Notes: generated from the sequence alone by a model not told the origin. A DNA stretch of 64,000 nucleotides from a bacterium (GCA_030432695.1 JAUILN010000016.1:113178-177177); one strand, 5' to 3'. Shown: positions 5,188 to 44,920, counted from the stretch's first letter. Program-made: numbers and translations.

Positions 5188-5468
5188 GCGCGTAGGAAAC
5201 ATGACGGGGGTTCTGGAGCCCAGCCACTTCAACCCGATCCACCCCGAACCCCACAGGCTCCCCCACCAGCGCGTCGCTCGGCCCCCTCTTCTGGCCTCAT
5301 CGCGGAACTTCGCCTGCACCCAGACGCGCCACAACCCGCGCCGACAGACCGGTGCTCCGCAGCGACCCCGCACCCGCACCGCTCAGCGCACTCAGATCAC
5401 TCCGCCCACAGGCCCGGAGCCTCCAGCGGCGGGCGTGCCGTTGACAGCGGCGGCAAGCTTGCTGGCAG
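5188..5468 (-). mobile_element. ISCR/IS91-like oriIS end, copy 1, with the last codons of the transposase
   Basis: GCGCGTAGGAAACATGACGGGGGTTCTGGAGCC terminus (minus: ...TTTCCTACGCGC), ~200 nt downstream of ...APGLWAE*. Homologous to 43002-43270. Confidence 0.85.
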
Positions 5469-5562
5469 AGGATCCCCGGCACGCAGAACGAGAACTCGCC
5501 CTGCGTGCCCGGCGCGAGCAATTCCTCGCCGAGCAGGCCACGTCCGCGACGGAGGAAGATCG

Positions 5563-5817
5563 ATGAACACCGAACCTGCCGACGACGCACTGCTCGTCTC
5601 GGTGCACGCGGAACTGCGGCGGATCGCGCAGGCCCAGATGGGTCGGGAACGCGACGACCACACGCTGCAGGCGACCGCGTTGGTGCACGAGGCATGGCTC
5701 GCGTTGCAGGGGCGTCTCGACGAGGCCTGGTCGGAGCCGCGTCGGTTCCACCTCGCCGCCGCCGAGTTGTATCGAGCGCTGCCCCGGATCGGGGACTATC
5801 CGGCCACGGAGGTCTGA
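5563..5817 (+). pseudogene. Truncated ECF sigma factor (kinase-associated HTLQATALVHEAWL type)
   Basis: Region 2 is present. After RRFHLAAAE it joins an unrelated tail with no region 4. Preceded by an orphan C-terminal fragment (5469-5566) with ATGA overlap. Confidence 0.8.
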
Positions 5818-5922
5818 AGAACGTCGGATTCTCGCGGGATTCCAGGCACCTCCACGGGCAGCGCTTCGCGGGAGGTGGCGAATGCGGGCGAGAGGCCCGC
5901 CAGGCACTCACGGAATCCCAAG

Positions 5923-6630
5923 ATGAACACAGTCTCCCGCTTCGCTCTCCCCGCCGCCGCCCTGCTGAGCCTCGCCGCGCCCGCATTCGCCCAGGATCTC
6001 GATGCCGAGATCGTCCGCAATCCGAACGACACCGTGACCTACACCGTCGACCTCGACGGCCCGCCACGGGGGATGTCGTTCCTGCTGACCAGCACGTATC
6101 CGACCTTCCCGTTCGTCCGGACGCCGTTCGGTCCGCTGTTCCTGGATCCCGCTGCGGCGATCGTGGTCGGCCAGACGCCGATCGATCCGCTCGGCCACGG
6201 TCGGTTGCAGTTCACCTTCCCGTTCCCGTTGGTGACCGGGACCCGCTTCTACTTCCAGTCGTTCAACATCGACGCGGCGAACCATTTGGCGCTGTCAGGC
6301 ACCTACGTGAGCTGCCTCACGCAGGACTTCGCGTTCAGCAGCAACCCGCTGCCGCCGAACTTCGGCCTGGTGGTCAAGGGCTACGCCGACAGCGACGACA
6401 TCAGCGCGCGCTACCGCCTGATCGGACAGCCGGGCACCCGCTACCGGATCACGGTCACCGATGCGCAGGGTAACCAGGTCGCGCAGCGCGAGGTGCAGGT
6501 GCCGGCGACCGGCAACGTGACGCACCTCGAGTTCGACCGCGCCGCGGGTCTGCAGCGGGGTCACCGCTGGCGGCTCGACGAGGTCTCGCGCGGCGGCGTG
6601 ACCGAGCGCGCCTCGGGATCGTTCGACTGA
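5923..6630 (+). CDS. Secreted hypothetical protein
   Basis: Signal peptide MNTVSRFALPAAALLSLAAPAFA-Q, beta-rich mature part, GC3-biased codons. Confidence 0.8.
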   Translation: MNTVSRFALPAAALLSLAAPAFAQDLDAEIVRNPNDTVTYTVDLDGPPRGMSFLLTSTYPTFPFVRTPFGPLFLDPAAAIVVGQTPIDPLGHGRLQFTFPFPLVTGTRFYFQSFNIDAANHLALSGTYVSCLTQDFAFSSNPLPPNFGLVVKGYADSDDISARYRLIGQPGTRYRITVTDAQGNQVAQREVQVPATGNVTHLEFDRAAGLQRGHRWRLDEVSRGGVTERASGSFD

Positions 6631-9863: not shown

Positions 9864-9886
9864 CGGAGGCGCTATGATCGGGGGCA

Positions 9887-10471: not shown

Positions 10472-10579
10472 GCCCCGAAGCGGCCTCGCCCGGCGCGGTC
10501 GCGCGCGGTGGCGAGCCGCTCGAACGATTGCCACGAATCTCCCGGCCTCCTGACGGGTCCCGTGCGCCAAGGCGGGTGC

Positions 10580-12892: not shown

Positions 12893-12894
12893 TC

Positions 12895-13521
12895 CGGGCG
12901 CCGATCGCGGCGATCGGCGAGAAGGCGTCCAGGCCGAGGCTGATCGGCTCGCCGGAGTCACGGCCCAGGTTGTTTCAGTCGGCCGGTTTCTTGATGCCGT
13001 CCTGCGGCCGCGCGTAGGCCAGCAGCAGGCCGGGGTAGCGGAGCGCCGCTCCCATGCCGTCGGTCAGGTCGGTCGGCAGGTTGGTCGGGTCGATCGCCGT
13101 GTCCTCGCTCATCAGGCGGAACTCATCGGTGACGTCGTTGGTCTTGCCGTCGACCGGGGCCGAGACCATCTCGTAGGAGATGTCGCGCTGGCCGTCGGGC
13201 AACAGCAGGTTGTTCGGCGTCGAGTTCGGCATGACGTGGTAGCCCCCGATGATCTCCACCGGGTGGCACATCGTGCACAGCCAGTTGTCGGTCACCGCGC
13301 CGCCGCGGTGCATGCCAGTCGCATTGTCGCCGAACACGTTGTGGCAACCGCCACAGGCCTGCATGTTCGGGGACTCGCTCCAGTTGCCACCGTCCGGGAT
13401 GTCCTCGTCGTCGGCGTTGTGGCACTGCACGCAGTACTCGACCGCGTAGCGACGACCGTGGAAGACCAGCGCGTCGTGACACTCGTTGCAGGTCGCGGTC
13501 GACACGATGTCACGGGTCGCG
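12895..13521 (-). pseudogene. Fragment of an OmcA/MtrC-like multiheme c-type cytochrome
   Basis: RDIVSTATCNECH, CVQCH, CGGCH, CTMCH (4 CxxCH). 5' end cut at oriIS copy 2; in-frame TGA at 12975-12977. Confidence 0.8.
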
Positions 13522-13665
13522 GCGCGTAGGAAACATGACGGGGGTTCTGGAGCCGAGCCACTCCAACCCGATCCACCCCGAACCCCACTGGCTCCCCCAC
13601 CAGCCCCTCGCTCGGCCCCCTCTTCTGGCCTCATCGCGGAACTCCGCCTGAACCTAGACGCGCCG
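13522..13665 (-). mobile_element. ISCR/IS91-like oriIS end, copy 2 (~144 nt)
   Basis: Same GCGCGTAGGAAACATGACGGGGGTTCTGGAGCC terminus as 5188. Confidence 0.85.
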
Positions 13666-13682
13666 AGCGGCCGTCGATCCGC

Positions 13683-14105
13683 GTGAACTACGCCGCGATC
13701 CCCCGCGAGCTGTCCGAGAGCGAGTTCTTCGGCCACGCCACGGGCTCGTTCACCGGCGCGCTGCGCCAGCGCGGTTCCGACATCGCGCTGCTGGCCGAGC
13801 AGTTCCTCCGCGACGCGGTTCGTCGCATCGGCCACCGACCTCCCCGGATCACCAAAGCCGTGGCGCGCCAACTCGAGTCCTACCCCTGGCCCGGCAACGT
13901 GCGCGAGCCCCAGCACGTCCTCGAGCGCGCCGCGCTGATGTCGCCGAGCCGTGTGCTCGAGCTCGAGATCGACAACCTCCGCGCGGCGCTCGAGCAGGCC
14001 TGTGGCAAGGTCTACGGCGCGGGCGGCGCCGCCGAACTCCTCGGCATGAAGCCGACCACCCTGGCCTCGCGCCTCGAGGCGCTGAAGATCAAGCCGTTGC
14101 GCTGA
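13683..14105 (+). pseudogene. Sigma-54 enhancer-binding protein remnant (FhlA-like C-terminus), internally deleted
   Basis: VNYAAIP...ESEFFGH..GSFTGA joins directly to LRQRGSDI...WPGNVRE...[17 protein letters not shown]; both Walker motifs are missing. Confidence 0.85.
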
Positions 14106-14245: not shown

Positions 14246-15826
14246 ATGGAACGCCCACCGTACGACGGGAGTGCACCGGCTCCCCGCGTCGTGAACATCG
14301 AGACCACCAAGTACTGCAATCTCCGCTGCAGGATGTGCATCCAGTTCCTCAGCGGCTCGACGGTCAAAGGGCCGCACATGGCGTTCGATCACTTCGAGGA
14401 GATCGCCGACCAGGTGTTCCCGTTCGTCGATGTCTGGCAGCCCAGCGTTGCGGGCGAGCCGATCCTGACGCCCCGGTTCGGAGACATGCTCGACCTCGGC
14501 CATGCCTGGGGGCTGGGTCTCGACATGACAACCAATGGCACGCTCCAGCAGGGGGCGGCGATGGACCGGGTCGTTCGAGATCTACGACAGGTCCAATTCT
14601 CTTTCGATGCGCCGACCAAGGCGTCCTTCGAACAGATTCGGGTGGGAGCGACCTTCGAGAAGGTCGTGGCGAACATCCTCGCGCTGCAGTCACTGTGCGA
14701 GCAGCAGCGGTCGGAAGATCGGCCCATGGTGGAGCTGAGTGTCACCTTGATGCAGAGCAATGTTTGCGAGCTGCCGGATCTGGTGGACTTCGCTGCGGAG
14801 ACCCTGCGAGTCGACGCCGTGCAGGTCATGCACGTGTTTCCGGCCAATGAGGACGTTCGGAGGGAATCCCTCGTGAGTTGCCCTGAGCTTGCCGCGAGCA
14901 AGATCCGGGAGGCGGAGCGACGGGCCGTCCGACACGGCCTGGGGTTCGTCGTGTATCCACTCGCTCCGGCCTTGGTGGCGACGGTCCGAGGGAGCGGGGA
15001 GCGGGCACGGCTCACCGCGGATGCCGGGGACCACTTCGACGGTCTCGGCGAGATACGGCACGACTCCCGGAGGCAAGCACGGCTCCCGCGACGGACTCCG
15101 AAAGCGGAGGCGCGCCGTGCCGACCGGGCGGCGTCCTCGTCTCTACCGCGGCGATCGCGTGGATCCGGTCGGACCGACTTGCCCCGGTCCATTCCCTACT
15201 GTCCGCAGCTGTGGCGCCGGGCCTACGTGCATCTGGACAACTCCGTCCTGCCATGCTGCATGCCGGGTGCTCCGACACTCGGCTACTTGCACGACCAGCC
15301 GTTCGAGGAGTTGTGGAACAACCGCGCGTACCGGGCGATGCGTCAGCGGCTTCTCGGAGGTGATCCGGTGCCGGTCTGCCGCGGTTGCCAGTGGCTGCAG
15401 ACGACCGAGGACCCAGGGATCATCGCCGAGGTCCTCGCGGACATGGCGCAGACCACGGACTGGATACCGCTTCCGGACTGTCTGCTTGCCGGGTCGTCCG
15501 GGGCGTTGCCAACTCGCACGGATGCGGCACCGACTCTGGCCTGGGATCCCATTGCGGAGGCCATGGCGTACCGGATCGAGTTCTCGTTGGATCGGTTCTA
15601 CAACCTGGATCATTCGGCGCCGGGCTTGAGTCCGGACGGCCCGTTCCGCTACGAAGTTCCAGAAGACCTCTGGAGGATGGCGCCCGCGCATCGCGGCGTT
15701 TTCTGGCGCGTCATGGCTCGGCTGCCGGGCTCGGAGGACCGCGTCGTGAAGCAGGGGCTCCTGCCTCCCGAGGTTGCCATGGATGGCGTCGCTTCTGCGG
15801 GGACCAGTGTCGGGCACGAGGCCTAG
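14246..15826 (+). CDS. Radical SAM/SPASM-domain protein
   Basis: CNLRCRMC, GEP, TTNG; SPASM-like CPQLW...VLPCC...G...WN...CRGC. Start codon uncertain. Confidence 0.88.
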   Translation: MERPPYDGSAPAPRVVNIETTKYCNLRCRMCIQFLSGSTVKGPHMAFDHFEEIADQVFPFVDVWQPSVAGEPILTPRFGDMLDLGHAWGLGLDMTTNGTLQQGAAMDRVVRDLRQVQFSFDAPTKASFEQIRVGATFEKVVANILALQSLCEQQRSEDRPMVELSVTLMQSNVCELPDLVDFAAETLRVDAVQVMHVFPANEDVRRESLVSCPELAASKIREAERRAVRHGLGFVVYPLAPALVATVRGSGERARLTADAGDHFDGLGEIRHDSRRQARLPRRTPKAEARRADRAASSSLPRRSRGSGRTDLPRSIPYCPQLWRRAYVHLDNSVLPCCMPGAPTLGYLHDQPFEELWNNRAYRAMRQRLLGGDPVPVCRGCQWLQTTEDPGIIAEVLADMAQTTDWIPLPDCLLAGSSGALPTRTDAAPTLAWDPIAEAMAYRIEFSLDRFYNLDHSAPGLSPDGPFRYEVPEDLWRMAPAHRGVFWRVMARLPGSEDRVVKQGLLPPEVAMDGVASAGTSVGHEA

Positions 15827-17040
15827 TGGTCTGTCGCACAAGTTCGCGCCAAAAGTTTGGCCGGTTTGGAGGCCTAGTTCGTACCACGTAGCATGGCGAA
15901 CACGGGACGGCCGATGGCGGCTCTGACGTTGACCGACGAGGAGCGCGAAACTCTCCAGGGGTTCGTACGGCGCCGCAAGACGCATGCTGCGCTGAGCCAG
16001 CGAGCGAAGATCGTGCTTCGATGTGCGGACGGCATGGCCAACGTCGATGTAGCAGAGGCACTCGGGGTCACCAACCACACGGTTGGCAGGTGGCGCAAGC
16101 GCTTCATCGAACGACGCCTCGAGGGCCTACTCGACGAACCTCGAGTAGGACGCCCTCGCACAGTCGAAGACGAGGATGTCGTTCGAACGATCGACGCCAC
16201 TCTGCATGACGACCCGGACGGAAGAACCCACTGGTCTACACGCTCGCTGAGTGACCACCTCGGCCTGTCGAAGGATGCAGTCGCGAGGATCTGGAGAGCG
16301 TTCGGGCTCCGGCCGCATCGATCAGAGTCGTTCTCTCTGTCGAAGGACCCTCAGTTCGTCGAGAAGGTCCGTGACATCGTGGGGCTCTACATGTGCCCTC
16401 CGACCAACGCGGTCGTGCTCTGTGTCGACGAGAAGTCGCAGATGCAGGCGCTAAACCGCACTCAGCGCATGCTTCCGTTGACGCCGGGTGAAGTCGAGCG
16501 ACGCACGTGCACCTATGAACGCAACGGCACGACCACACTCTTCGCCGCGCTCGAAGTCGCTACAGGGAAGGTGATCGGCGACACGTTTCGCAGGCACAGA
16601 TCCAAGGAGTTCTGCGCCTTCCTGAACCAAGTTGATCGAGACGTTCCCGAAGAACTCGACGTCCATCTCGTGCTGGACAACCTCGCGACGCACAAGACCG
16701 AACAAGTTCACAACTGGCTGGTCCATCACCCGCGCTTCCACCTCCACTTCACTCCGACCTACTCGTCTTGGCTCAACCTCGTGGAGCGCTTCTTCTCAAT
16801 CGTCGAACGGCGCGTGACCCAGCGGGGAGTCCATCGATCGGTGGCTGAACTAGAACGCGACATTCGCGAGTGCCTGGAAGCGCACAACAAGGACCCGAAG
16901 CCTTTCGTGTGGACCAAGACAGCCGACGAGATCCTCGAGAATCTCAAGCGATACTGTGAGCGAGCTTCAGCGGTCCGCGCCGAGAAGGACCGCCGCCGAA
17001 AGAAGGAAAACTCATGACGCGAACTCTTGCGACAGACCAC
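15826..17040 (+). mobile_element. IS630-family insertion sequence, apparently intact
   Basis: Terminal inverted repeats GTGGTCTGTCGCACAAGTTCGCG / CGCGAACTCTTGCGACAGACCAC; TA at 15824-15825 and 17041-17042. Confidence 0.95.
15893..17017 (+). CDS. IS630-family DDE transposase
   Basis: N-terminal HTH (RAKIVL...VGRWRKRF), [24 protein letters not shown]. Confidence 0.97.
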
Positions 17041-17182
17041 TAGGAACTCTGCAGATCAGCGGGTGCGCAGGCCGATCGCCAGGCCGAAGAGCTGCTCGAC
17101 GCCGCCGCTGGAGTTGCCACGGATGCCGTAGATCCGGGCCACGCCGTTCTTGCCGGGCAGCGTGTGCGTCGCGCCAACCACC

Positions 17183-17469
17183 GCATCGCTGGGCGGTGGC
17201 AGCGGGTAGAACACGACGCGGTCGGCGCCGGACGACACCGTGAAGACCCCATCCACGAACAGGGCGTGGAAGTGCGGGTTGAGCGGCAGCGCCGAGTCGA
17301 AGCGCTGCACCGACACCACTGCGGCTGGCCGAGCATCCTCGATGCCCTGCCTGCGTGCCTGACGGCGCTGCAGGGCGAAGCACGAGCGCACGAAGATCCG
17401 GCAAAGGTCGCCGAGGAGATCCGGGTCACGGGCCACTGGAAAGCGCAGCTCGAAGGGCAGGCTCAGGAG
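17183..17469 (-). pseudogene. Internal fragment of the ISCR-like transposase (HUH region)
   Basis: LSLPFELRFPVARDPDLL...QRFDSALPLNPHFHALFVDGVF, closely matching 44120-44410. Confidence 0.9.
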
Positions 17470-17497
17470 TTGTTGGAGTCCGCTCGCCGACGCGTCC

Positions 17498-18212: not shown

Positions 18213-18757
18213 GCGCGTAGGAAACATGACGGGGGTTCTGGAGCCCAGCCACGGCAACCCGATCCACCCCGAATCCGTTCAAATCCCCCACCAGCACCCC
18301 GCTCGGCCCCCTCTGCTGGCCCTTCGCCCGACCCTCAACGCCCCGCAGCCCGCGCCGACAGACCGGTGGCCCGAAGCGACCCCACACCGGCCCCGCTCAG
18401 TGCACTCTGATCACTCCGCCCACAGGTCCGGCGCCCCCGGCAGCGGACGCGCCGGTGAGTGCGGCGGCAACTCGGCCGGATGCCCCAGGTGCGACAGCAC
18501 CCGCGTGATCGTCCGTGGATCGGTGATGAACGTGAGCAGGCGCCGGCGAGTCTCGCAGTGCGGACAGAACATTACGTCCACCCCAAAGCTCCTAAGCGTC
18601 AACTCCGCCCACGTCCAGCGACGCCGCCATTGCGGCTTACGCCGCCGCTTCTCGCCCACCGCCCGGCATAGCCGCCGCTGCCTCGACCGGAACGCGGGAC
18701 GCTCCCCTCGTCCTCGCGCGGTACCGGCACCACCCGCTCGCGGTTCGACGCCGCGGG
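18213..18757 (-). mobile_element. ISCR/IS91-like oriIS end, copy 3, with uninterrupted transposase C-terminus
   Basis: WTWAELTLRSFGVDVMFCPHCETRRRLLTFITDP...APDLWAE* (stop at 18411), 198 nt from the terminus. Confidence 0.9.
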
Positions 18758-19440
18758 CTCCTCGCGGCGGGGTCGAGCCCGATCTACCAGTTCGCCCACG
18801 CGTTCCGTGATGGCGAGGTGGGAAGGCGGCACGCGCTGATGGACGAGGTGGAGTCGTTCGTGCGGGACTTGCTGCCGGCAGCGGGCGACGTGCCGTTCGC
18901 TCGGAAGACCTACCGGAAGGTGTTCCTGGATGCGGCGGAGGTCGACCCGTTCGCGACGTCGGTCGCGGAGATCTGTGCGGTGTGCGAGCGACTCGGTGTG
19001 GCGGTGCCGGCGGGCTTCGAGGAAGGATCTCTCGACGATGCCCTGGACCTCCTGCTCGTGTGGCACGTCGAGCCGCAGCTGGGCGGAGGCGTGCCGCTGT
19101 TCGTATATGACTACCCCGCATCGCAGGCGGCACTGGCGCAGGTGCACGAGGGCCCGGATAGCCACCGCACGGCGCAGCGCTTCGAGTTCTACGTGGAGGG
19201 CGTGGAACTGGCCAACGGCTACCACGAGCTGTTGGATGCGGCGGAGCAGCGGACGCGGTTCGAACAGGCGAACCGGACGCGGGTCGCGGACGGGCGCGCC
19301 GAGCTGCCGATGGACGCGGAACTACTCGAGGCGCTGGCGGCAGGGATGCCGGCTTGCGCGGGCGTTGCCCTGGGGTTCGACCGGCTGATGATGCTGGCGA
19401 CGGGCGCGACGGAAATCGGGGACGTGCGGTTCGGCTGGGC
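18758..19440 (+). pseudogene. epmA: EF-P lysine aminoacylase EpmA/GenX fragment
   Basis: LLAAGSSPIYQFAHAFRDGEVGRRH|ALMDEV...YDYPASQAALA...RFEFYVEGVELANGYHEL...GVALGFDRL. N-terminus and the NPEFTMLEWY segment are missing. Confidence 0.88.
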
Positions 19441-23296: not shown

Positions 23297-23572
23297 CGGG
23301 CCCCGGTCGTTCCATCCAGAGAACGCTGGGTCCCGATTGTCCGACTTCTCAGGCCGCGTGTCGCGCCTAGGAGGCAGGGTCACGGGACACGTTCCGATCC
23401 AGTGCGTGACCTCGTGCTCAGGTCGAAGCCGCGAAACGCAGCCGAATCTGTGGATTCGGCGAGGCTTCGGGGCGAGATCCTGGGCGCGAGGGCGCGTGCT
23501 GGGCGGAATGGTCTGCCGTGACCCTGTCTCCTAGTGTCCTGGTAGGCCGAGATCCGAACCGGGAAGCCAGAC

Positions 23573-28543: not shown

Positions 28544-29214
28544 CGTTCTCTCCGGGATCAGGTGGGGCATGGTGCCCCGGACTTGGCGTGGCCCGACGTG
28601 GGCCGTGGGCGGGTGCCAGGTCACATCCCGTGCCCTCGGACGGACGGTTGGAGAGTGGAAGGGCGTAAGCCACTTCTCATAAGTTGGTTGGAGAGATCGA
28701 TGGCCGCCGAACGGAATGCAGCCAGCGCGACGAGATCTCGTGATCCCCGAGATCTCGTGCCCCGAGATCACGAAATGTCGGGGCGCCCTTCCGCCAGGAT
28801 TGACGACTCGGCGCGACCGGATGCGTACCGAGATCGGTTGACGATCACGACGAAGCGCGGAGCCCCGATCGCAAGTCGCGGTTCTGGCTCGGCGGCCTGA
28901 ATCCGAGATCGCGCAGCATGTCACCGACCCCGCTCTGGCCGCCTGCGGCCCGCTGAGTGGAGCTTCCCGGCGCCGGACGGACTTGCAAGACACCGTCTCG
29001 ACGACAAAGCCGTCAGGGCCGGTGGGCCATCAGGCCCGCAGCGAGCAACCTTGCCAGAGCCGCGCCCTCCCGGTCGAGATCGAGGCCGAGAGCTGTACAC
29101 CACGCCTCTCCATCACGCCTTCGAGCTCGGTATTCGCCAGCGATACCCACGGCCTTCGATCTCGAGGACGTGGCACAGTTCGAGGGCTCGCCGGGCTGCC
29201 ACGCGCGTCAGCGA

Positions 29215-29386
29215 GCGGCGCACATGGTCCGCCACGCGCGCCAGGTCCGCGTCGCTCGGCGGCGGCATTGGGTGGAACACGGCGCGGCCGGCGCCGAAAG
29301 ACACCGTGAAGACTCCATCCACGAACAGGGCGTGGAAGTGGGAGTTGAGCCGCAGCGCCGAGTCGAAGCGTTGCACCGACACCACT
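29215..29386 (-). pseudogene. Internal fragment of the ISCR-like transposase (HUH region)
   Basis: VVSVQRFDSALRLNSHFHALFVDGVF...PPPSDADLAR. Confidence 0.88.
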
Positions 29387-29759
29387 CACGCTTCGGCCGA
29401 CGCCCGGACGACCCGGGGTGTGTTTCCTGCACGCCCTGACCGACCAGCAGCGCCTCCCATGGCTCCATGCGGTGCCGACAATGGTTCCCAGCGACCTCGA
29501 GTTCCGCCTCGAACGTGCGGTGACGGTCCGAGTCCTGCGCCAAGACCAACCCCCCAGGAACCTCGCGGTTCGGTTCCGAGGCAATGCTCGCGACGAGTCG
29601 CTTTCTCTCGTCACCGACGATGCCGGCGGACTCCGGCTGTGGCTTCCCTTGCAAGGCGGGACCTTGGTGAAGATCGAGCGCCCCGAGCGAGCGACATTGG
29701 AGCTCGACGTGCGCACGGCCGACGAAGACGGCCTCCTCGTCATCGATCTCGACGACTGA
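29387..29759 (+). pseudogene. 3' fragment of a paralogue of the 3-1415 carboxypeptidase-regulatory-like gene
   Basis: PGRPGVC...LPWL...FRLER.VT...LVTD..G.L.LWLP...ADEDGLLVIDLDD*; begins at the transposase-fragment junction. Confidence 0.8.
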
Positions 29760-30253
29760 CCCACTCCCCCATCCCGCCGCGGCGCACTCCGCCCCGCCGC
29801 CTTGCTCGCCTCCAGCAACCCCTTCAACTCCACCACCTCCTCCGGCCGCTTCGACCACAGATTCGTCGTCTCCCCCGGATCGACCTTCAGATCGTAGAGC
29901 TGCCCCGGCGCGTCCGGATCGGTCTCCGGCAACGCATAGGGCAACAGCCGCCCCCGGTCATAGCGATTCCGGCTTGACGGCCTCGTCGAGTGCCGGGCCT
30001 ATCGGCTCCTACTGGCTTACGCGTCGGCCCGGGCCCTCCTGGTCTACGACGCGTAGCTCGAGCAGCGTGGCGTCGCGATGGAGGACGTGCTGACGAAGAT
30101 CGTGGTCGTGAGTCGTGGATCGCGGGGCGAGCTGCGCTTCGGCTCGCGAGACCGAGCGGTCGACGGATGGTCCACGAAGAGGCTGACGTGGCTCGTGTCA
30201 CGCCAGTCTCGCTGGGGATGGCGCGCGAGGTCCCGAAGAGCGTAGCGCACGAC
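29715..30253. repeat. Copy B of the duplicated block (gene end + sulfatase tail + module)
   Basis: Near-identical to 1370-1908, including the same breakpoint and the same in-frame TAG in the module. Confidence 0.9.
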
Positions 30254-30261
30254 ACGACTGA

Positions 30262-30510
30262 ATCTTCGACCTCTACCAGCACAACAAGCTCAACAACCTG
30301 CAGAGTGAGATGGAGCTGCGCCGGGATGCCCAGGGCACGGTCGACGCGGACCGGCTGGAACGCGCGATCGGTGAGCTGGCCCTGGCGGTCAAGACCGTCC
30401 AGCGTCTCGCGGTCGAGAAGGGACTGTGCACCGCGCAGGAATTCCAGGACCGCATGCGCACGATCGACGCCGAGGACGGCCGGACCGACGGGCAGAGTCC
30501 GGTGCCGTGA
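30262..30510 (+). pseudogene. 5'-damaged small hypothetical gene
   Basis: D*IFDLYQH...ERAIGELALAVK...IDAEDGRTDG; begins right after repeat copy B. Confidence 0.5.
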
Positions 30511-30524
30511 TGGTGCTGGTGGGC

Positions 30525-31574
30525 TCAGCTGCCGATCAACACGTAGCCGACCGGCGAGCTGACGAAGCCGAGCGCATTGGCCGGCGGATCGAGGAAGTAG
30601 CCCTGCAGGAACGCCATGCCGCCCACTGCCCCGGGGACGGCCGGCATCGTGACGTTCAACAACGCGTCGCCCTGTGCCGACAGCGGAATCGCGGCGGAGA
30701 CCAGCCCGGGCAGGTGCGTGTATTGACGGCAGCCTGGCATGCCGAATCCGCTCAGGTCCTGGGTGGCCGTCGCCACGCGCGTGTCGGCGATCAGCAGCGC
30801 GACACCGTTCGCGGGACCGTTGCCGAGTGCGATCCCGAAGTTGGCACCGAGCGCGGCACTGCCGGTCAGATCGAGGGTCGGCACGCCGGCCGAGCCGACA
30901 CAGCCGTGACCGTTCACGGCGAGCACCGGGACGTCGAAGCAGATCTTCATCTTCGGAGCGCCCTGCCCCACGACGCCGGTGGCCGGTGCCCCGCCGCCGA
31001 AGCCCGCCACGTGGACATGGTCCAACGTCGGATCGCTGAGGAAGCCGGGCTGAGGCGAACCGGTCAGGGCGCCGCCGTGGACGTCGATCTCGACGATGAG
31101 ATCGCGGTTGCTGGTCGGATCGAACGGGAACGACTCACGCCAGCCGAGATGGTTCCACCGGCCGGCCGTCACGCGCCAGTCCCAGGCCACACCGCTCATG
31201 ACTCCGGCACCGAAGCCGGGATGGTTGCGGTGGAACACGGGATCCAGCGGGGTTCCGGCGGGCAGTGAGCCCAGGCCGATGCCGACCCGGCTCAGGCTCC
31301 GCGTGCCGGTCCCCGCGGGCGCGAATCCGATCTCTCGGATGCGCACGACCCGCCGGGGGAACAGCGCGTTGGGGATCCGCACCAGCAGATGCTGGTTGGC
31401 GGTCTGCAGGTCGTTCGGATCGGTTCCTCCGAACGGGACGACCGAGGCGGGCCCGGTCGTCGGGTCGTTGTCCGGGACGTAGATGCAGTCCTGCGCCGCG
31501 ATCGGCAGCGTCGACAGCAGGGAGACGATGGCGGCTGCGAGAACGCGGAGCAGCAGATGGGGTCGGAGAGTCAT
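30525..31574 (-). CDS. Secreted protein with C-terminal GxGC...Q...S domain
   Basis: Signal peptide ...LPIAA-Q; C-terminus GHGC...PGC...LQGYFLDP.ANALGFVSS. Confidence 0.82.
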   Translation of the reverse strand: MTLRPHLLLRVLAAAIVSLLSTLPIAAQDCIYVPDNDPTTGPASVVPFGGTDPNDLQTANQHLLVRIPNALFPRRVVRIREIGFAPAGTGTRSLSRVGIGLGSLPAGTPLDPVFHRNHPGFGAGVMSGVAWDWRVTAGRWNHLGWRESFPFDPTSNRDLIVEIDVHGGALTGSPQPGFLSDPTLDHVHVAGFGGGAPATGVVGQGAPKMKICFDVPVLAVNGHGCVGSAGVPTLDLTGSAALGANFGIALGNGPANGVALLIADTRVATATQDLSGFGMPGCRQYTHLPGLVSAAIPLSAQGDALLNVTMPAVPGAVGGMAFLQGYFLDPPANALGFVSSPVGYVLIGS

Positions 31575-31842
31575 GACTCGTAGGAAGTGGGGATCCGATG
31601 CGATGGCCTCCGACATGCGGCGGCGCGCGGCGGGACCCTGCACGATTCGGTGGATTCCTGGCGATCACACCGCGCCGTGCCGGCCCCGGCGCTGCGTACG
31701 GAACCCGGACCGGTGTGTGCGCATGGCGGCCCCTCAGAACGCCGATCGGTGACGGCACGGCCATCGCCCTTCGGTGTGCGTCGCCGTCGCGCCAAGCGAT
31801 GACTCTTTGCAACTCCCACCCACGAAACAGAAAGAGACACCG

Positions 31843-32030
31843 ATGCACTTCGCCACCAAGACCCTGTTCCTCGCCGTCGCCCTCACCGCGGGCGTCACCG
31901 CCCAGACCCAACTGGTCCGCGGCGACGTCGACAGCGTCAGCGGCTCGAACCGCTTCCAGCTCGACTGCACGCGGATCCCCTTGACCAGCTCGACGGTCAA
32001 CCTGGAGCAGCTCCACGACCAGAGCCGTCA
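31843..32030 (+). pseudogene. Secreted protein truncated by oriIS copy 4
   Basis: MHFATKTLFLAVALTAGVTA-Q... runs into GCGCGTAGGA at 32031. Confidence 0.8.
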
Positions 32031-32983
32031 GCGCGTAGGAGCGATAACGGGGGTTCTGGAACCCAGCCACTTCGACCCGATCCACCCCGAACCCCACAGG
32101 CTCCCCCACCAGCGCCTCGCTCGGCCCCTCTTCTGGCCTCATCGCGAAACCTCGCCCGAACCTGGACGCGCCGCAACCCGCGCAGTCGGACCGGTGCTCC
32201 ACGGCGACCCCGCATCCGCACCGCTCAGCGCACTCAGATCACTCCACCCACAGGCCCGGAGCTTGCGGCGGCGGGCGTGCCGTTGACAGCGGCGGCGACG
32301 TTACTGGCACCCCCAGGTGCGACAGCACTCGCGTCATCGTCCGCGGATCGGTGATGAACCCGCGAAGCGGGTCGCTGCATCCGATGCTCATCAGCCTCCG
32401 CAGGAGGCTGCAGCAATACTGTCTGCGGCCAGGTCAGCAGGCGACGGCGGGTCTCGCACGCGCCCGCCCGTGCATGCTCGGGCGGGTCCCCGCTGAGGAC
32501 AGATCAAGATGTCCACACCGAAGCTCCTCCGCATCAGCTCCGCCCACGTCCAGTGGCGCCGCCAGTGCGGCTTCCTCTCCCGCTTCTCCCCCGCCTCCCG
32601 GCATGGCCGCCCTTGCCTCGACCGGAACGCAGGACGCTCACCCTCGTCCTCGGGAGGCACCGGCACCACCCGCTCGCGGTACGACGCCGCGGGGGCGAAC
32701 GCTCCGTGGTAGGTCACCAGATTGCTATGCGGCCGCGGCACCAGTGCTGCCAGCCGCTCGATGAGAACCAGCGGCTCGAATACCACCAGCTTCGTGCCGT
32801 CCTTCCACGGCCGCTCGAGCCGGTACACCACCTTCCCGTCACGCGTCCACGCCAGCCGCGACTCGTCCAGCGCGGGGCGCAGCACATACCGACACAGCCG
32901 CTCCAACGCGTCCTCCCGCCCTTCCGCCACACGCGTCGCGGCGTGCAGTGAGAACCCGCGGTAGCGCGCCTGCAGCGTAGGAC
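32031..32983 (-). mobile_element. ISCR/IS91-like copy 4: oriIS end + C-terminal half of the transposase with two hairpin insertions
   Basis: GFSLHA...ERLCRYVLRP...WKDGT...YHGAFAP; closely matches 43002-43870. Confidence 0.9.
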
Positions 32984-33050
32984 TGACCTTCCCCCATTTC
33001 ATTAGACAGCGGGGATCAGGCGGCAGTCACCGCCATCAGATTGTGCGTCT
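32984..33050 (-). mobile_element. IS3-family right-end remnant
   Basis: Minus strand ...ACTGCCGCCTGA-TCCCCGCTGTCTAATGAAATGGGGGAAGGTCA: an ...AA* ORF end followed by an IS3-like terminal repeat ending CA. Confidence 0.5.
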
Positions 33051-33866
33051 GCCCCCGCAGTGCGGGCACGTTAGCATGTCGAGAAGAAAGACCCTCTTCA
33101 CCATCTCCGCCCAGGAGTATCTCCGCCGATGCGGTCGCGGTGGTACGGGAGCGGGATCGGTCGAGGTCGTCGCGTGCGGGCAGGTTGGGGCGGCGCCAGG
33201 GAGGTTCGCGTCCTCGTCGGGCGGTGGCTCGGGAACGACCCGATCTCGGAAGGAGGCTGCAGGAGCGAAGATCCCGTGGTAGGTGGTGAGGTGGACGCGG
33301 GGTCGCGGTACCAGGGCGGCGAGGCGTTCGATCAGGGTGATGGGGGCGAGGACCACATGCGTCGATCCGTCCTTCCAGCGTCTCTTGAGCTTGTAGAGCA
33401 CTTTCTTGCCGTCGGCGCTCATTGACAGGCGTTCGTGGACGACGAGCGGCCGCGCCGCGTAGCGGCAGAGCTGCTCCAGGCGTCCGCGGGCGTAGCCAGC
33501 GATGCAGACCCCGGCGTGGAGAGAGAAGCCCTCGGCGTCGGCGCAGAGCTTGCCGCGACGGAACTCTCCGCCGCCGTCGAGCGAACCACGACCGAGCCGA
33601 GGGACGGGCGAGCCGGCGTTCGGCCCGAGCGCGATGCGACCCTGGACGGCGGCGGCGCCGAGGATCTGGAGTACGGACGGCTCGAGCGTCGTCGGGTCGT
33701 CGGCGGGGGTATCGTCCTCAGGGAGCTTGCCGTGCTTGCGGAGGTAGCGGAGGACGCGCTGACGGATCGCGCGGGCGAGCCTGTCGATGTCGTCGTCGGT
33801 GATCTGCGGGGCGGGATGGAAGGTGGCGCGGTCACCGACTGCCGAGCTGCAGGTGAACACCCCGTC
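33051..33866 (-). pseudogene. Second, divergent ISCR/IS91-like transposase, truncated at both ends
   Basis: DGVF...GFSLHAG...EQLCRYAARP...WKDGSTH...YHGIFAP...WAEMVKRVF...CPHCGG. Confidence 0.88.
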
Positions 33867-34008
33867 CGGCCAGGATTCTCGGCCGAGCGAAAGACCGCGC
33901 GGCGCACAGCATGCCGCGGGCCGCGCGCAGCGCACGTCGATCGTCGCGAAGCGGATCGCTCGGTCGATGCGACGTCACCCTGCTCGCGATGAGTCGGGCG
34001 CCGCGCGC

Positions 34009-34608: not shown

Positions 34609-34685
34609 TCTCGCGAAAGAGCGGACCGCCCGCCCGTCGAGCCCGCGGAAACTGTTCTTCTGATGAATCTCGCGAACCACCCGTC

Positions 34686-37118: not shown

Positions 37119-37363
37119 GGATCGCCCGCCCCAACCTACCGCGCGGCCCCGGCTCGGGGTCGGGTACCGGTCGGCGTTCCGATCAGAGCGGCGGATCGGG
37201 CCCACGCGCCCGCAAAAAGTGGAGATTTCCGGCGCGGCCCACCTGAAGCGCGGGTCGCCGAGAAATGCGCAGACTCCGCGGGCACGCGCCGCCACGCGTC
37301 CGCTCTTCGTAGCGCGATCTCCGGCCCGCGCCGCGGCCGGCCCCAGTTTCCCCCGAGGTCCTG

Positions 37364-39547
37364 ATGCACTGCCTGTCCGCCGCCGCCTTGCTCTCCGCAA
37401 CCCTCTCCGCACAGGTGCCCGAGGCGCCCTCGCCCGCACCGCTCACCGATCGCCCCGAGGGTCGACTCTCCGCGGCATCGATCGACCTCAGCGCGCAGGT
37501 CACAGAGGCGGCGATCGGCCACTTCGACGGCGTCTGGTGGGGGTCGGGAGCGGACTACTCGGCGCGCTTCGCGGCCGACGGCCTGACCTTCAGTCCGAAC
37601 TTCGCCATGCCGCGCGGCGGCGCCGTGCGATTCGAGTTCGAGTCGGCGCGGCGCCTCGGGGGTGACGCCTGGACGGCGGATCCGGTCGAGCCGCGGGGCG
37701 ACGCCCTGGCCAGCATCGTCGACTACCCGCGGGGCGCCGTGCTCGAGCGTTACGAGCTGCGCGGCCACGACCTCGAGCAGAGCTTCGTGTTCGACCGCTT
37801 GCCGCCGGGCTGCGGCGACCTGGTTGTCACTCTGCACACCGAGACCACGCTGACCTGCTCGACCGAAGGCCGCGCCGACGCGGGGTTCGCGTACGACGCC
37901 CCGGGCTGCGGCTCGATCACCGTCGGCCGCGTCGTCGGCATCGACGCAAACGGTCGGCGCTCCGACGGCTGGATCCGGGTCGCGCCCGGGCAGCTCGAGC
38001 TCGGCCTGCCGCAGCGATTCGTCGACACGGCCGCGCTCCCACTGACGGTCGACCCAGTGATCGGCAGCACGTTCCTGGTCACGGCCGGGCAGAACCGCGC
38101 GCCCGACGTCGCGTACGACCTGACCAACGACATCTACCTGGTGGCCTGGGTGGCGACGGGTTCGCAGTCTTTCGCCAAGGCACGACGCGTCGGCTCGGAC
38201 GGGCAGCCGATCGGCGGCGTGCTGCTGCTCGGCCCCTGCAATGACTATTCACCCGTGCGGGTGGCGAACATCAACGACCGCGATTCGTTCGTTGCCGTGT
38301 ACAACGACAACGGCGTCCTGAAGGCGCGGCGCGTCCTGCCGAACGGCGTGACGAGCGTGACGCCGATCACGATCGCGAACGTCGCTTCCAACGCCGCGTT
38401 CGACGTCGGCGGCGACATCACGACCAGCGATAACGACGTAGTCGTCGTCTGGGCAGATACCAGCGGCCACATCCGCGCCGCGCAGATCGAGGACTCGCCG
38501 AGCCGAGGCTTCCACGTGTTCGGCGAGACGGTGATCTGCAGCGGCAACTGCAGCGGACCGGCCATCGCCGAGAGTGGCGGGAGCGCCGGCCGGTACCTGG
38601 TCGTGTGGAACCAGGCCCTCAGCAACAGCGACCGGGTGATCCGCGGCGTCGTGATGGACCGCAATCTGGCCGTGCTCGACTCACTGGTCCAGGTCACGCT
38701 CAGTGGCGGCGCGAGTGACTTCAATCCGGACGTCGATGGCGACGGCCTGCAATGGGTCGTCTCGTACCTCCGCCTTCTCAGCGGCGAGTACGACGTCATG
38801 TGCCGCTCGGTGCAGTTCCATCCAGCGAACCCCGCGGGCACCTTCATCGGCCCCGAGATGGTCATCGAGGCGGATCCGCGAGACCGAGAAGAGTCCCCGG
38901 CCGTCGCCTGGCTCGGCGGTTCCGCACTGGTCTCCTATGTCGACAACAACTCATCTCAGGGCGACGTCTACGGCAAGACCGTCGATCCGTTCGACTGCAC
39001 GATCTGCGAGACTCAGTTCACGCTGGAGGAGGGCCCCGAGAGAACCTACTACGTGAGTTGCGCGAGCACCCACAGCGGGGGCGCCGACGACGACCGTGCC
39101 CTGATCGTCTGGGAGAGCAAGGGCGCGAACAACGCCGGCGAGATCCGCGCGCGACGCTTCCTCGCGTCGGACGGCATCGCCACCGACCTCGGCGGCGGCT
39201 GCGGCAGCGGCGGCACGAACTACGCGACCTGCGCGCGGACCGGTCAGTCCGGGTTCCGATTCCAAGTGCGGGAGGGCCGCAGCGCGACCAGCCTGCTGTT
39301 CGTCGGACCCGAGCGCATCGACGCCGGCTGCGGTCCCTGCCGGCTGGTGCCCGACCCGGCGAGCAGCGCGGTGGTGCTGGTCTCGACCAGCGCGGCCGGT
39401 CGCGCGGAGGTCGCCGTGCCGATCCCCAACAGCACGCACGTGCGCGGCATCAAGCTCTACAGCCAGTGGCTCCTGCTCTCGTCCGCCGGAGCCTGCACGC
39501 GCCTGCCCGGCGACTTCTCCAACGCACTCGAGATCACCATCCAGTGA
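37364..39547 (+). CDS. Large secreted protein, paralogue 2 of 3
   Basis: Signal peptide ...TLSA-Q; same three-part architecture as 10580. Confidence 0.87.
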   Translation: MHCLSAAALLSATLSAQVPEAPSPAPLTDRPEGRLSAASIDLSAQVTEAAIGHFDGVWWGSGADYSARFAADGLTFSPNFAMPRGGAVRFEFESARRLGGDAWTADPVEPRGDALASIVDYPRGAVLERYELRGHDLEQSFVFDRLPPGCGDLVVTLHTETTLTCSTEGRADAGFAYDAPGCGSITVGRVVGIDANGRRSDGWIRVAPGQLELGLPQRFVDTAALPLTVDPVIGSTFLVTAGQNRAPDVAYDLTNDIYLVAWVATGSQSFAKARRVGSDGQPIGGVLLLGPCNDYSPVRVANINDRDSFVAVYNDNGVLKARRVLPNGVTSVTPITIANVASNAAFDVGGDITTSDNDVVVVWADTSGHIRAAQIEDSPSRGFHVFGETVICSGNCSGPAIAESGGSAGRYLVVWNQALSNSDRVIRGVVMDRNLAVLDSLVQVTLSGGASDFNPDVDGDGLQWVVSYLRLLSGEYDVMCRSVQFHPANPAGTFIGPEMVIEADPRDREESPAVAWLGGSALVSYVDNNSSQGDVYGKTVDPFDCTICETQFTLEEGPERTYYVSCASTHSGGADDDRALIVWESKGANNAGEIRARRFLASDGIATDLGGGCGSGGTNYATCARTGQSGFRFQVREGRSATSLLFVGPERIDAGCGPCRLVPDPASSAVVLVSTSAAGRAEVAVPIPNSTHVRGIKLYSQWLLLSSAGACTRLPGDFSNALEITIQ

Positions 39548-39555
39548 GGCACGTC

Positions 39556-41757: not shown

Positions 41758-41959
41758 TGGCGTCGATCACGCCAGTGCAGGAGTCGCGAGATTCGTCAGA
41801 GCCCGGCCCGGGAGGTACGACTTGACACTCGGAATCCGTTCGAAGCAGTTCGTAGCCATCCTCTTCCCGGCACCAAGCCTCGACTCCGCGCACGACCGCA
41901 CCGGGCTTCTGCCTCGGCTGCTGACATCGAGTCGTTGCTCTGGTCGAGGCCGGAAATAC

Positions 41960-42835
41960 GTGCCAAGAACCTGGTCAGCCGCGACCGACGGTCGAGTTCG
42001 TCTGCTCCTCACGCTCCCGCTCACTCTGCTCGCATGCAGCGCGCCACCTACGCCTGCGCCGATCGATGCGGCGACGGTCTACGAGGAGTACTACGTCCCC
42101 GCGCTGTTCGGCTCGTGGGCCGTGCGGGTCGCCGACGCCGCGGGCATCGCTCCGGACGACGCGGTGCTCGACGTCGCGTGCGGAACCGGGGTGGTGGCGC
42201 GAGAAGCCGCTCGACGAGTCGGGCCCGGCGGCACCGTGACTGGCCTCGACATCGACCCGTCGATGCTGGCGGTCGCGCGGGGCATCGACCCCGCGATCCG
42301 CTGGGAGCTCGGTGATGCCCAGGCGCTGCCGTTCCCTGACGCCTCGTTCGACGTCGTCACCTGCCAGTTCGGTCTGATGTTCTTCCCCGACCGGATCCTG
42401 TCGATCCGCGAGATGCTCCGGGTCGTCCGGCCTGGCGGTCGCATCGTCGTCGCCGTGTGGAGCCCGCTGGACACCAGTCCGGGCTATGCGACTCTGGTCC
42501 GGCTGCTCGCCCGGCACCTGGGCGAGGACAGTGCGGAGAGTCTGCGCGCGCCGTTCGACCTGGGCGACGCCGACGAACTCACGCAGCTGTTCGCGCGCGC
42601 TGGCGCGCCGTCCGCGGCGATCTCGACGCGGGCCGGGAGCGCACGTTTTCCGTCGATCCGCTCGTGGGTCGAGACCGAAGTCCGTGGCTGGGTCGGGCTC
42701 AGCCAGGAGTTCGACGAAGCCCGGCTCGAAGCCCTGGTCGGGGCCGCCGAACAGGAGCTGGCGAGCTGGGTGACCGCGAGTGGCGACGTGCAGATCCCGA
42801 TCGAGGCGCACCTGGTCGCCGTCACCAAGCGGTAG
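41960..42835 (+). CDS. Class I SAM-dependent methyltransferase (UbiE-like), possibly with a lipoprotein-like leader
   Basis: VLDVACGTG, GDAQALPFPDASFDVVTCQFGLMFF, VRPGG. Start codon uncertain. Confidence 0.88.
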   Translation: MPRTWSAATDGRVRLLLTLPLTLLACSAPPTPAPIDAATVYEEYYVPALFGSWAVRVADAAGIAPDDAVLDVACGTGVVAREAARRVGPGGTVTGLDIDPSMLAVARGIDPAIRWELGDAQALPFPDASFDVVTCQFGLMFFPDRILSIREMLRVVRPGGRIVVAVWSPLDTSPGYATLVRLLARHLGEDSAESLRAPFDLGDADELTQLFARAGAPSAAISTRAGSARFPSIRSWVETEVRGWVGLSQEFDEARLEALVGAAEQELASWVTASGDVQIPIEAHLVAVTKR

Positions 42836-43001
42836 ATCCGAGCGACGATTCTGGGCACCGTTCGCCGGCCGCTCCTCTCTCGCCCGGCCGAGAGCCCGCC
42901 CAAGCCGATCTGCTCCGTCGAGAGCTCGAGGCCGGTGAGATACTCGCGCAGCACGGGATCGAATTCGAACGTGCGGCCTTCGGTATGCACTTCGACGAGT
43001 A

Positions 43002-44920
43002 GCGCGTAGGAAAAACAAAGGGGGACTCTGGAGCCCAGCCCCGGCAAGCAGCCCCTCCCGATCACCCACCACCGCGTCGTTCGGCCCCGCCTGCCGGCTC
43101 CATCGCGAACTTCTGCCCGACCCTCAACACCCCGCACCCCGCGCCGACAGACCGGTAGCCCGCAGCGACCCCTCACCGGCCCCGCTCAGTGCGCTCTGAT
43201 CACTCCGCCCACAGGCCCGGAGCCTCCGGCGGCGGACGCGCCGCTGACAGCGGCGGCAGCTCGGCCGGCAGCCCCAGGTGCGACAGCACTCGCGTGATCG
43301 TCCGCGGATCGGTGATAAAGGTCAGCAGGCGACGGCGGGTCTCGCACGCGCCCGCCCGTGCATGCTCGGGCGGGTCCCCGCTGTGGACAGATCAAGACGT
43401 CCACCCCAAAGCTCCTCCGCATCAGCTCCGCCCACGTCCAGCGGCGTCGCAAGTGCGGCTTCGTCTCCCGCTTCTCGCCCACCGCCCGGCAGGACCGCCT
43501 TTGCCTCGACCGGAACGCCGGCCGCTCACCATCGTCCGCGGACGGCACCGGCACCACCCGCTCGCGGTGCGACGCCGCGGGCGCGAACGCTCCGTGATAC
43601 GTCACCAGATTGCGATGCGGCCACGGCACCAACGCTGCCAGCCGCTCGATCAGGACCAGCGGCTCGAAGACCACCAGCTTCGTGCCATCCTTCCACGGCC
43701 GCTTGAACCGATACACCACCTTCCCGTCACGCGTCCATGTCAGCCGCGACTCGTCCAGCGCGGGCCGCAGCACATACCGACACAGCCGCTCCAACGCGTC
43801 CTCCCGGCCTTCCGCCACACGCGTCGCGGCGTGCAGTGAGAACCCGCGGTAGCGCGCCTGCAGCGTAGGACGCCCGAACTTGCCGGAGTCTCGGCGATCT
43901 TCCTGGGCGAGACGCGCCGCCTCATCCCCCACCCGGCGCACCGCGCAGCCGGCGCACTCGCCGAAGGCTATCCCGCCCTGCACAGCCGCCTGCTGGCAGG
44001 CATCCAACGCCGTCGGCTCGTGGTCCAGCAGCGGTCCCTGGCCCCACTCCACTGTCAGGCCACGCTCACGCAGCAGCGCCAGGGTGCGGCGGAAGATCCG
44101 GGTCGCCGCCCGCGCCAGGTCCGCGTCGCTCGGCGGTGGCAGCGGATGGAACACGGCGCGGCGGGCGCCGGACGGCACCGTGAACACACCATCCACGAAC
44201 AGTGCGTGGAAGTGCGGGTTCAGCCGCAGCGCCGAGTCGAAGCGCTGCACCGACACCACTGCGGCTGGTCGCGCGTCCTCGATGCAGTGCCTGCGCGCCT
44301 GGCGGCGCCGCAGGGCAAAGCACGAGCGCACGAAGATCCGGCGCAGTTCGCAGAGGAGGTCCGGATCGCGGGCAACAGGGAAGCGCAACTCGAAGGGCAG
44401 GCTCAGGACGAACTGGCGCACGGGCACGTCCGGGAACACCCGGTCCACCAGCCAGGCGGCGGTGTCGGCCATGCGCCGGCCGCCGCAGGAGGGGCAGAAG
44501 CCGCGGCGCTTGCACGAGAGGGCGACCAGCTCGTCGCGCCTGCAGCCGGGGCAGTAGACCCTCGCGAACCCTGCCGCGAGCTGACCGCAACGCAGGTAGT
44601 CCTCGAGCTCCCGGCGCACGAAGCCGGGCACCTGCGGCGGAGAAGGATCGCCACAGTCATCCAGGCGCCCGAAGAAGGTGGCCAGGTGACGCTGGAGCAC
44701 CTGATACAGAACTCCCCCCTCCGGTCGCCGGCGCTTGCGATGGGGACTCCAGGACGTTGTCACGCCCTGCTGTGCCCCGCGGTGAGCTGGCGGTCACGGG
44801 CGGCGTCGCTTTCCCGATCGAATCACCAGGTCGCGGGGACAGTGCCGCGACGGTCCCTGCCGGCCCAACCGAGAACCCCTGGCCGGTCAGTGATCGACCG
44901 CGCGAGTGAGAAACCCCGGA
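43002..44920 (-). mobile_element. Near-complete ISCR/IS91-like rolling-circle element (copy 5)
   Basis: oriIS-like terminus at 43002, transposase, and an upstream boundary near 44920 where homology to repeat copy B starts. No terminal inverted repeats or target duplication. Confidence 0.88.
43200..44763 (-). pseudogene. ISCR-type HUH transposase (single catalytic Tyr), frameshifted near the C-terminus by a 34-nt insertion
   Basis: Zn-binding CG...CPGC...SCKRRGFCPSC, HUH NPHFH, LCRYVLRP. Removing 43347-43380 restores CPQCETRRRLL...GLWAE* as in copy 3. Confidence 0.9.

Follow-up and report, generated by a model that had tools for sequence, protein, structure and literature searches.

Five sites in a 64,000-nt stretch of the genome of an uncultured bacterium (GCA_030432695.1 JAUILN010000016.1:113178-177177; the whole stretch is referred to as the window) bear true oriIS-side ends, all belonging to a single ISCR-like rolling-circle element of 1,920 bp. 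The element pieces, which lie within 5188-44921, all point the same way and the oriIS (ori) ends are precise to the base. Loss of the opposite (ter) side of the element is seen genome-wide, and one joint to neighbouring DNA carries microhomology. The stretch may well be a fossil polar cluster in a dispensable patchwork island, partly acquired by horizontal transfer. That it is a cluster of ori ends whose ter sides were lost by abortive one-ended copying or by deletion is the explanation favoured here, held with evenly balanced confidence. A previous sequence-only reading had described the same ends as the outcome of repeated one-ended rolling-circle events that build a polarised array of captured DNA.

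The host genome (G000) comprises 10.03 Mb in 37 contigs (given C-numbers below), with 70% GC and 88% completeness; the window lies on contig 28. Element extents were taken from self-blastn and alignment, and the right boundary of the full-length copy was set at the start of a repeated module, the X-tail module. Relatives were compared in one search of 41 genomes and another of 61, with a same-genus genome in neither set.

Ori ends and transposase of the element

The 10-mer GCGCGTAGGA was found five times in the window, at exactly the positions given by the sequence-only reading (5188, 13522, 18213, 32031 and 43002) and 5/5 on the plus strand. The expectation for the window was 0.18 occurrences and 0/100 shuffles gave five. 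In an alignment of the five sites, homology starts at GCGCGTAGGA with an ambiguity of 1-2 nt at the ends, and the sequences on the left-hand side are unrelated. The terminus lies 184 nt beyond the transposase stop codon and is identical and base-precise in 5/5 window copies. Each ori end was taken to have been placed by transposase, given its exact boundary and the lack of relationship among the left flanks. On the sense strand the constant end reads ...TTTCCTACGCGC; it lies downstream of the transposase gene and contains TTCCTA, in agreement with the oriIS position and TTCCTA core assumed in that reading. A named ISCR-type element in one plasmid record has TTCCTA 220 nt past the stop. The oriIS is likewise downstream of the transposase gene in IS91, ISCR1 and Sphingobium IS91 (PMC13181058, PMC6218425, PMC5737581).

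Four of the five copies are ori-end remnants, and all five read on the minus strand. Copy 1 (5188-5467) is 280 nt long. Copy 2 (13522-13665; 144 nt) has 94.5% identity with copy 1, copy 3 (18213-18758; 546 nt) retains an intact C-terminal reading frame, and copy 4 (32031-32983; 953 nt) ends with the bases GGAC, as does copy 5. Copy 5 (43002-44921) is the full-length element of 1,920 nt, with its ori-side end at 43002 and its ter-side end at ∼44921, and is the sole place in the genome that covers transposase residues 1-525. These lengths agree with, and slightly refine, the previous estimates of about 280, 144, 545, 950 and 1920 nt. Two internal transposase pieces, each with both ends gone, were located on the minus strand at approximately 17167-17475 (residues ∼117-219, element positions ∼1120-1407) and 29194-29386 (residues ∼162-232, element positions ∼1100-1259). 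The C-terminal 299 residues of a second IS91-family lineage (lineage B) lie at 33036-33935, also on the minus strand, with 43-45% amino acid identity to copy 5 and a stop codon 52 nt past the copy-4 break. As had been reported before, the two internal pieces and the second lineage share the strand of the ori-end copies, so that 8/8 element pieces in the window are co-oriented.

The copy-5 transposase open reading frame (ORF; 43186-44763, minus strand) encodes 525 residues. The Pfam families Y2_Tnp (PF04986; 1.1e-22) and Zn_Tnp_IS91 (PF14319; 8.1e-16) were matched above their cut-offs, and the nearest Atlas clusters carry both PF04986 and PF14319 in 30/30 cases. The top NCBIfam match, ISCR clade Ia, scored 282.4 bits against a cut-off of 925, and the second, the IS91 equivalog, scored 74.6 bits against a cut-off of 125, both below threshold. 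The closest plasmid genes, annotated as 'IS91 family transposase' on resistance plasmids, have 38.5% amino acid identity. An HFH motif and the invariant Tyr330 and Tyr351 were seen in an alignment with full-length relatives, in which a YxxxY pair around Tyr330 was not visible. The ISCR branch has a single tyrosine. The assignment to ISCR/IS91 in the sequence-only reading is borne out by the two Pfam domains and by the best, sub-threshold, NCBIfam match; as judged from its protein, the element is a distant ISCR-like member of the IS91 family, outside both named NCBIfam models.

Terminal inverted repeats joining the copy-5 ends were not found among the 25 longest of 98 inverted pairs. No target-site duplication was found at the full copy or the four remnants, and the outer flanks TGCG, CGCG, GACC, GTCA and AGTA differ, just as had been noted from the sequence. 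Five further ori flanks read GCCG, GTCC, AGCA, GGCG and GATC; a GTTC/CTTG-type tetranucleotide is absent beside the ori end in all 10 flanks read, and three paralogue 'empty sites' gave no common motif. Thirteen truncation points in the genome fall at element positions 135-1159, with 0/13 beyond position 1160 of 1920. They have no ter-like end tetranucleotide in common; GGAC, the copy-5 end, was found at 1/13 only, in copy 4, where the flanks are not contiguous despite the GGAC end.

A convincing subterminal hairpin appears to be absent from the window copies: their ori ends folded no better than shuffled sequences (z-score +0.5 to +0.8), and a consensus fold of nine ori ends gave an uninformative -1.48 kcal/mol. 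A 7-bp stem without mismatches lies in the ter region (44833-44854), with a z-score of only -0.31. A second ori-end subtype was observed on another contig (L019; C7:35909 and C7:43817), in which the first 26 nt form a terminal hairpin of 8 bp (z-score -1.97) with a compensatory pair between the two copies (GCGCAG/CTGCGC and GCGTAG/CTACGC); the window subtype is without this hairpin.

Junctions were compared with four public metagenome runs that contain 94% of the sampled words; these probably represent two data sets and are possibly the assembly's own source. Contigs from the runs bridge the junctions at 13665/6, 17475/6, 18758/9, 29386/7 and 32030/1 with 0 differing letters and even depth (∼65x and ∼16x). 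The left edge of the 29194 piece is also bridged, and junction 18212/3 is covered with merely 30 letters on one side. No bridge for 13521/2 or 32983/4 was found among the 32 contig pieces listed of 884. Collapsed repeats or mixed strains in a metagenome-assembled genome could give false junctions, and the 37-contig, 88% complete assembly, the use of metagenome runs and the two of eight junctions without a bridge among the pieces listed would fit such an artefact. The copies, however, differ by 5.5-25%, too divergent to collapse, and five junctions are spanned at even depth without other letters, albeit by runs that may be the assembly source. Together, the bridges and the divergence of the copies make misassembly very improbable. 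Contigs from all four runs also join 28893 back to 14541, with 10 additional letters and a depth close to single-copy; this may reflect a paralogous locus or short GC-rich words that match by chance.

Polarity and state of the family across the genome

A genome-wide map of the ori ends, which the sequence-only reading had called for to assess strand bias and clustering, located further pieces in two clusters on C7 and in one each on C11 and C15, with single pieces on C35 and C37. The pieces of any one of these four other clusters all lie on one strand. The ori terminus is kept, exactly or nearly so, by at least 14 copies in the genome, at least nine of them outside the window. The part of the element past position 1600 is left only in copy 5 and in one ter-proximal piece on C15, and cover falls along the element from ∼9 copies (positions 100-500) to ∼3 (900-1300) and ∼1 (beyond 1400). 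The pieces on C7 are 95-98% identical to one another and have an internal deletion in common, which indicates that local direct duplication occurs. A replication-strand bias was considered as the cause of co-orientation and rejected, since relative to local GC skew four clusters are oriented one way and three the other.

Matches to the element were found in 22/41 related genomes, mostly as fragments. By hand tally among the matches listed, 21/25 neighbour pairs in the relatives are on one strand. In one relative in six contigs (G024), a hand tally of the 27 merged places among the matches listed gave 16 truncated places anchored at the C terminus and one at the N terminus.

Among the copies, identity is 75-94.5%. 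In an alignment with five full-length relatives, copy 5 follows the consensus up to about residue 470. The ∼45 conserved residues at the C terminus of its transposase are put out of frame by a palindromic insertion of net 34 nt (43347-43381, minus strand), which is also present in copy 4. Three-frame translations showed the conserved tail CPxC...LLTFITDP...LGLP... to be read in frame by copy 3, whereas copies 4 and 5 have it in another frame. No intact transposase of the copy-5 lineage was found in the 88% complete assembly, and the family appears to be inactive in the host genome now.

Two composite structures were observed outside the window. On C15 (L016; 479719-487900) an 8-kb composite begins with a 570-nt ori piece inserted 2 nt past the stop codon of mgtE. 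This piece is followed by an extracytoplasmic function (ECF) sigma factor, a Ser/Thr kinase with an FGE-sulfatase domain, two ORFs with low GC content at third codon positions (GC3) and a ter-proximal piece. At the far end lie 195 nt, then a second copy of the mgtE 3' end (185 nt, 97%) and then the native downstream DNA. The arrangement looks like Campbell-type integration or homology-facilitated illegitimate recombination. On C11 (L020; 58663-61980) a 113-nt direct repeat (83%) has one copy directly outside an ori end and the second ∼96 nt past the truncated end of the next element copy, in the same layout as on C15. On both contigs the repeat layout would match a circle that integrated by homologous recombination, the route put forward for the IS91 cluster of Sphingobium (PMC5737581).

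Cut genes, fused fragments and the origin of the cluster

The gene fragments that abut the ori ends are of several kinds. Copy 1 cuts the last ∼39 codons of a Cupin_6-domain gene (5074-5187, plus strand; paralogue on C37), the 107 nt to its left having 92% identity to the 3' end of the gene on C37; an IS66 tnpA had been named here, and no ORF matched the IS66 family. The copy-2 ori end cuts an MtrC/OmcA-like multiheme cytochrome (12904-13521, minus strand), of which residues 209-461 of the 759-residue C36 paralogue are left; for this gene the previous identification holds. Left of copy 4, three genes with homologues at C11:318376-320646 in changed order occupy 30257-32030, the last of them cut at about residue 117 by the ori end. 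The flank stretches themselves gave no Pfam family, including those of copies 3, 4 and 5, in a scan of 45 ORFs at E ≤ 0.01; 1/45 ORFs had a match (4924-5814, Sigma70_ECF), through a sigma fragment to the right of copy 1. That the other halves of the cut genes are absent was upheld: tblastn of nine paralogue proteins against the window returned the known fragments only, and genome-wide blastn gave no continuations.

On the truncated side, copies 1-3 had been described as running straight into foreign fragments, which is the case for copies 2 and 3; in copy 1 ∼90 unassigned nt intervene. The fragment past the copy-1 break (5557-5781, plus strand) holds the N-terminal 74 residues of an ECF sigma factor with a paralogue on C36, the head of the gene and not an operon tail as previously supposed. 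Copy 2 is joined to a sigma-54 activator fragment (13659-14096, plus strand) with ∼3-7 nt of overlap, i.e. microhomology, and the fragment has two internal deletions at short microhomologies. The copy-3 break is joined directly to an epmA fragment (18759-19438, plus strand) that lacks ∼67 N-terminal residues. It has 46% amino acid identity to the resident EpmA on C34, and its best nucleotide match in 60 genomes of the family is 74%. At copies 2 and 3 the two flanks belong to different gene families on opposite strands.

The nearest intragenomic homologues of the neighbouring fragments have 46-82% protein identity, which makes them paralogues or foreign versions and not recent donors; the search for intact donors suggested by the sequence-only reading came back without a recent one. 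The part of the window that runs from the ECF sigma fragment up to that of the cytochrome has a collinear counterpart on C36 (75-87% nucleotide identity) and so forms a coherent homeologous block, not a random collage. The nearest homologues of the other fragments are on C35, C34, C29, C11, C37 and C7. The segment 19565-22212, with an NmrA/SnoaL fusion gene and an AraC-family regulator, was observed to have 86% DNA identity to a genome of a different genus (G015:C6:41811-44736), compared with 65-74% in the bacterial family for other segments of the same 20-kb query, and was likely acquired horizontally. This segment and the 46% identity of the epmA fragment to the resident protein point to patchwork, partly foreign DNA. 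The X-tail/sulfatase module at 29674-30254 consists of a CarboxypepD_reg-type gene tail, ∼205 nt of a sulfatase 3' end and 290 nt. Self-comparison found it again at 1359-1909 (93%) and 44922-45221 (90%), the latter directly after the ter end of copy 5. The copies at 1359-1909 and 29674-30254 have a common chimeric junction at which the sulfatase stops after ∼205 nt.

In the explanation favoured here, each end would have been laid down by its own transposase-precise event, and copies 1-4 would have lost everything past 144-953 nt. Two routes to this loss are considered: premature termination of copying from ori, with illegitimate joining of the free end to DNA close by, or later deletions with illegitimate joining. 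Each copy would represent one insertion and one illegitimate joint, with the ter side lost together with adjoining target DNA; such a loss of target DNA would explain why the cut genes lack their other halves. The neighbouring fragments would be residual island DNA and not cargo, and the polarity would stem from rolling-circle initiation at ori. A precedent is IS801, for which right-end fragments of 229, 360 and 679 nt were reported in 26% of transposition events (PMC3189936). The excess of ori-bearing copies and the length gradient suggest a tie between the loss and rolling-circle initiation at ori, with microhomology-joined abortive copying; confidence in this is moderate, as repeated ordinary deletions could give a similar gradient. 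Several points weigh against the explanation. Copies born truncated and copies deleted later are not separable here, and deletions alone also shorten copies. Co-orientation is not accounted for by the model itself, or partly at best. The tallies in relatives were made at the protein level and are biased to the better conserved C-terminal half, and the counts in the host are not independent, as pieces within clusters are partly mutual duplicates (95-98% on C7). The homologues of the neighbouring fragments lie on seven contigs, as capture from many loci would give. The direct repeats that flank the composites on C15 and C11, and the position of 2/3 module copies just past ter-side element sequence, hint at circle integration or duplication of which the model makes no use. 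In a bolder version, each remnant would arise in a single step: rolling-circle replication started at ori would break off at a random point, microhomology would join the free 3' end to a template close by or to a switched one, and chimeric pseudogene mosaics would be built in this way across the bacterial family. This version is regarded as rather unlikely. If true, it would be a bacterial counterpart of 5'-truncated long interspersed nuclear element (LINE) insertions and of Helitron fragment shuffling.

The inference of the sequence-only reading, that one-ended rolling-circle events from ori ran into neighbouring DNA and stacked captured fragments as a polarised array in the manner of Helitron shuffling, draws on one-ended transposition as established for IS91, IS1294 and IS801 (PMC13181058, PMC3189936), on the uniform orientation of the ends, on the direct fusion of copies 2 and 3 to foreign fragments and on the scatter of the fragment homologues over seven contigs. 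It also finds support in two window cases and one on C15 in which an ori piece is followed downstream by a collinear, non-overlapping piece from further along the element; the ori and ter-proximal pieces on C15 enclose 6.7 kb with the ECF sigma factor, the kinase and the low-GC3 ORFs. The precise, co-oriented ends and the genome-wide polarity stand, but transport of captured DNA is not supported. Ter is present in 0/4 truncated copies, so none is a read-through product as experimentally defined, and no chimeric junction of truncated IS and foreign DNA occurs twice (18 high-scoring segment pairs (HSPs) in the window, 195 in the genome). The halves of the cut genes do not lie beyond the supposed cargo, the nearest homologues are only 46-82% identical at the protein level, unit ends and targets are without a conserved tetranucleotide, and an intact transposase was not found. 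Mini products of the IS801 type sit in an uninterrupted target and terminate with a ter-like tetranucleotide (PMC3189936); copies 2 and 3, in contrast, each lie between unlike genes on opposite strands, and GGAC is at 1/13 ends. Capture in this form is considered rather unlikely. Plain decay would have full-length copies inserted independently into an island tolerant of insertions and trimmed later by deletions, other mobile elements and local direct duplications, the polarity reflecting selection against the promoter-proximal part of the transposase or shared ancestry instead of rolling-circle mechanics. Truncated ends do abut mobile DNA (copy 4 and lineage B, C7:317981 and a 170-nt repeat, C7:44912 and a palindromic repeat), an IS630-family element stands just before the 17167 piece, the 95-98% alike C7 pieces have their internal deletion in common, and a retrospective survey of IS801 attributed most genomic fragments to reorganisations (PMC3189936). 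Random deletion should nevertheless hit the ori and ter sides equally, where at least 14 ori ends were observed against one ter side; boundaries of duplications would not fall on the exact ori terminus 5/5 with unrelated left flanks; and every cluster is uniform in orientation, yet GC skew is not followed. Decay alone was rated as somewhat unlikely.

Related systems and mobile DNA in the region

Helitrons combine HUH rolling-circle logic with an association with gene fragments; the DNA that they capture is bounded by intact termini on both sides, and the chimeric copies are amplified. In the window, unlike in Helitrons, there is no repeated chimeric unit and ter is absent from 4/5 copies. The element resembles ISCR1 and ISCR2 in its single HUH transposase gene and in an oriIS end ∼200 nt downstream; the oriIS region of ISCR1 is 232 bp (PMC6218425), and partial, co-oriented ISCR copies flank other genes (PMC7722449). 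It differs from the named ISCR elements in its location on the chromosome of an environmental high-GC bacterium, in the absence of resistance genes and in being present mostly as old remnants. Distinct ori and ter ends, without inverted repeats or target duplication, are shared with IS91, IS801 and IS1294 (PMC13181058, PMC3189936), which show one-ended transposition, IS801 also making right-end mini fragments (PMC13181058, PMC3189936). Unlike classical IS91, the window element has neither a GTTC/CTTG-type tetranucleotide nor shared ter-like ends.

The sdpA region of Sphingobium herbicidovorans MH is alike in its co-oriented IS91-type copies of two subtypes, its imperfect repeated modules and its mosaics (PMC5737581). 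That cluster was explained by recombination at shared IS91 terminal regions and a circular intermediate (PMC5737581). Its copies are near-identical and active and an 11-kb circle was seen (PMC5737581), whereas the window copies are 75-94.5% identical. Published examples already exist of gene mosaics structured by co-oriented IS91/ISCR copies, of partial copies next to cargo genes and of mini fragments from the ori end (PMC5737581, PMC7722449, PMC3189936). What the window adds is a distant environmental member with an unusually clean polarity signal, not a new mechanism. ISCR elements are credited with moving many resistance genes; as of 2018, experimental transposition had not been shown for any of them (PMC6218425). 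With at least 14 base-precise ori ends, hardly any ter ends and one orientation within each cluster, the host genome offers natural-history evidence for ori as the acting end, and for leavings that are mostly truncated. The host ori end, combined with intact transposase homologues from related genomes, provides a test case for one-step truncation versus later decay.

Further features were observed in the window and elsewhere in the genome. The ARAGORN program called a 97-nt tRNA-Ala(GGC) of odd length at 37902-37998, within a long high-GC3 ORF region, which may be a false call. The IS630-family element before the 17167 piece (15823-17020) is complete (DDE_3 and helix-turn-helix (HTH) domains), has a depth ∼2x that of single-copy DNA and matches the ends of contigs C15 and C5 with its left 124 nt at 97% identity; it has probably been recently active, breaking the assembly. 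A repeat of ∼170 nt at 23354-23534, resembling a miniature inverted-repeat transposable element (MITE) or a repetitive extragenic palindromic (REP) sequence, occurs in more than 60 copies (77-97% identity) on most contigs, at ∼15x single-copy depth, and one copy adjoins the truncated element end at C7:317981. A perfect 12-bp palindrome at C7:44913-44950 lies right after a truncated element end, with similar sequences on C35, C22, C5 and C18, and may belong to a REP-like element or mark the terminus of some other mobile element.

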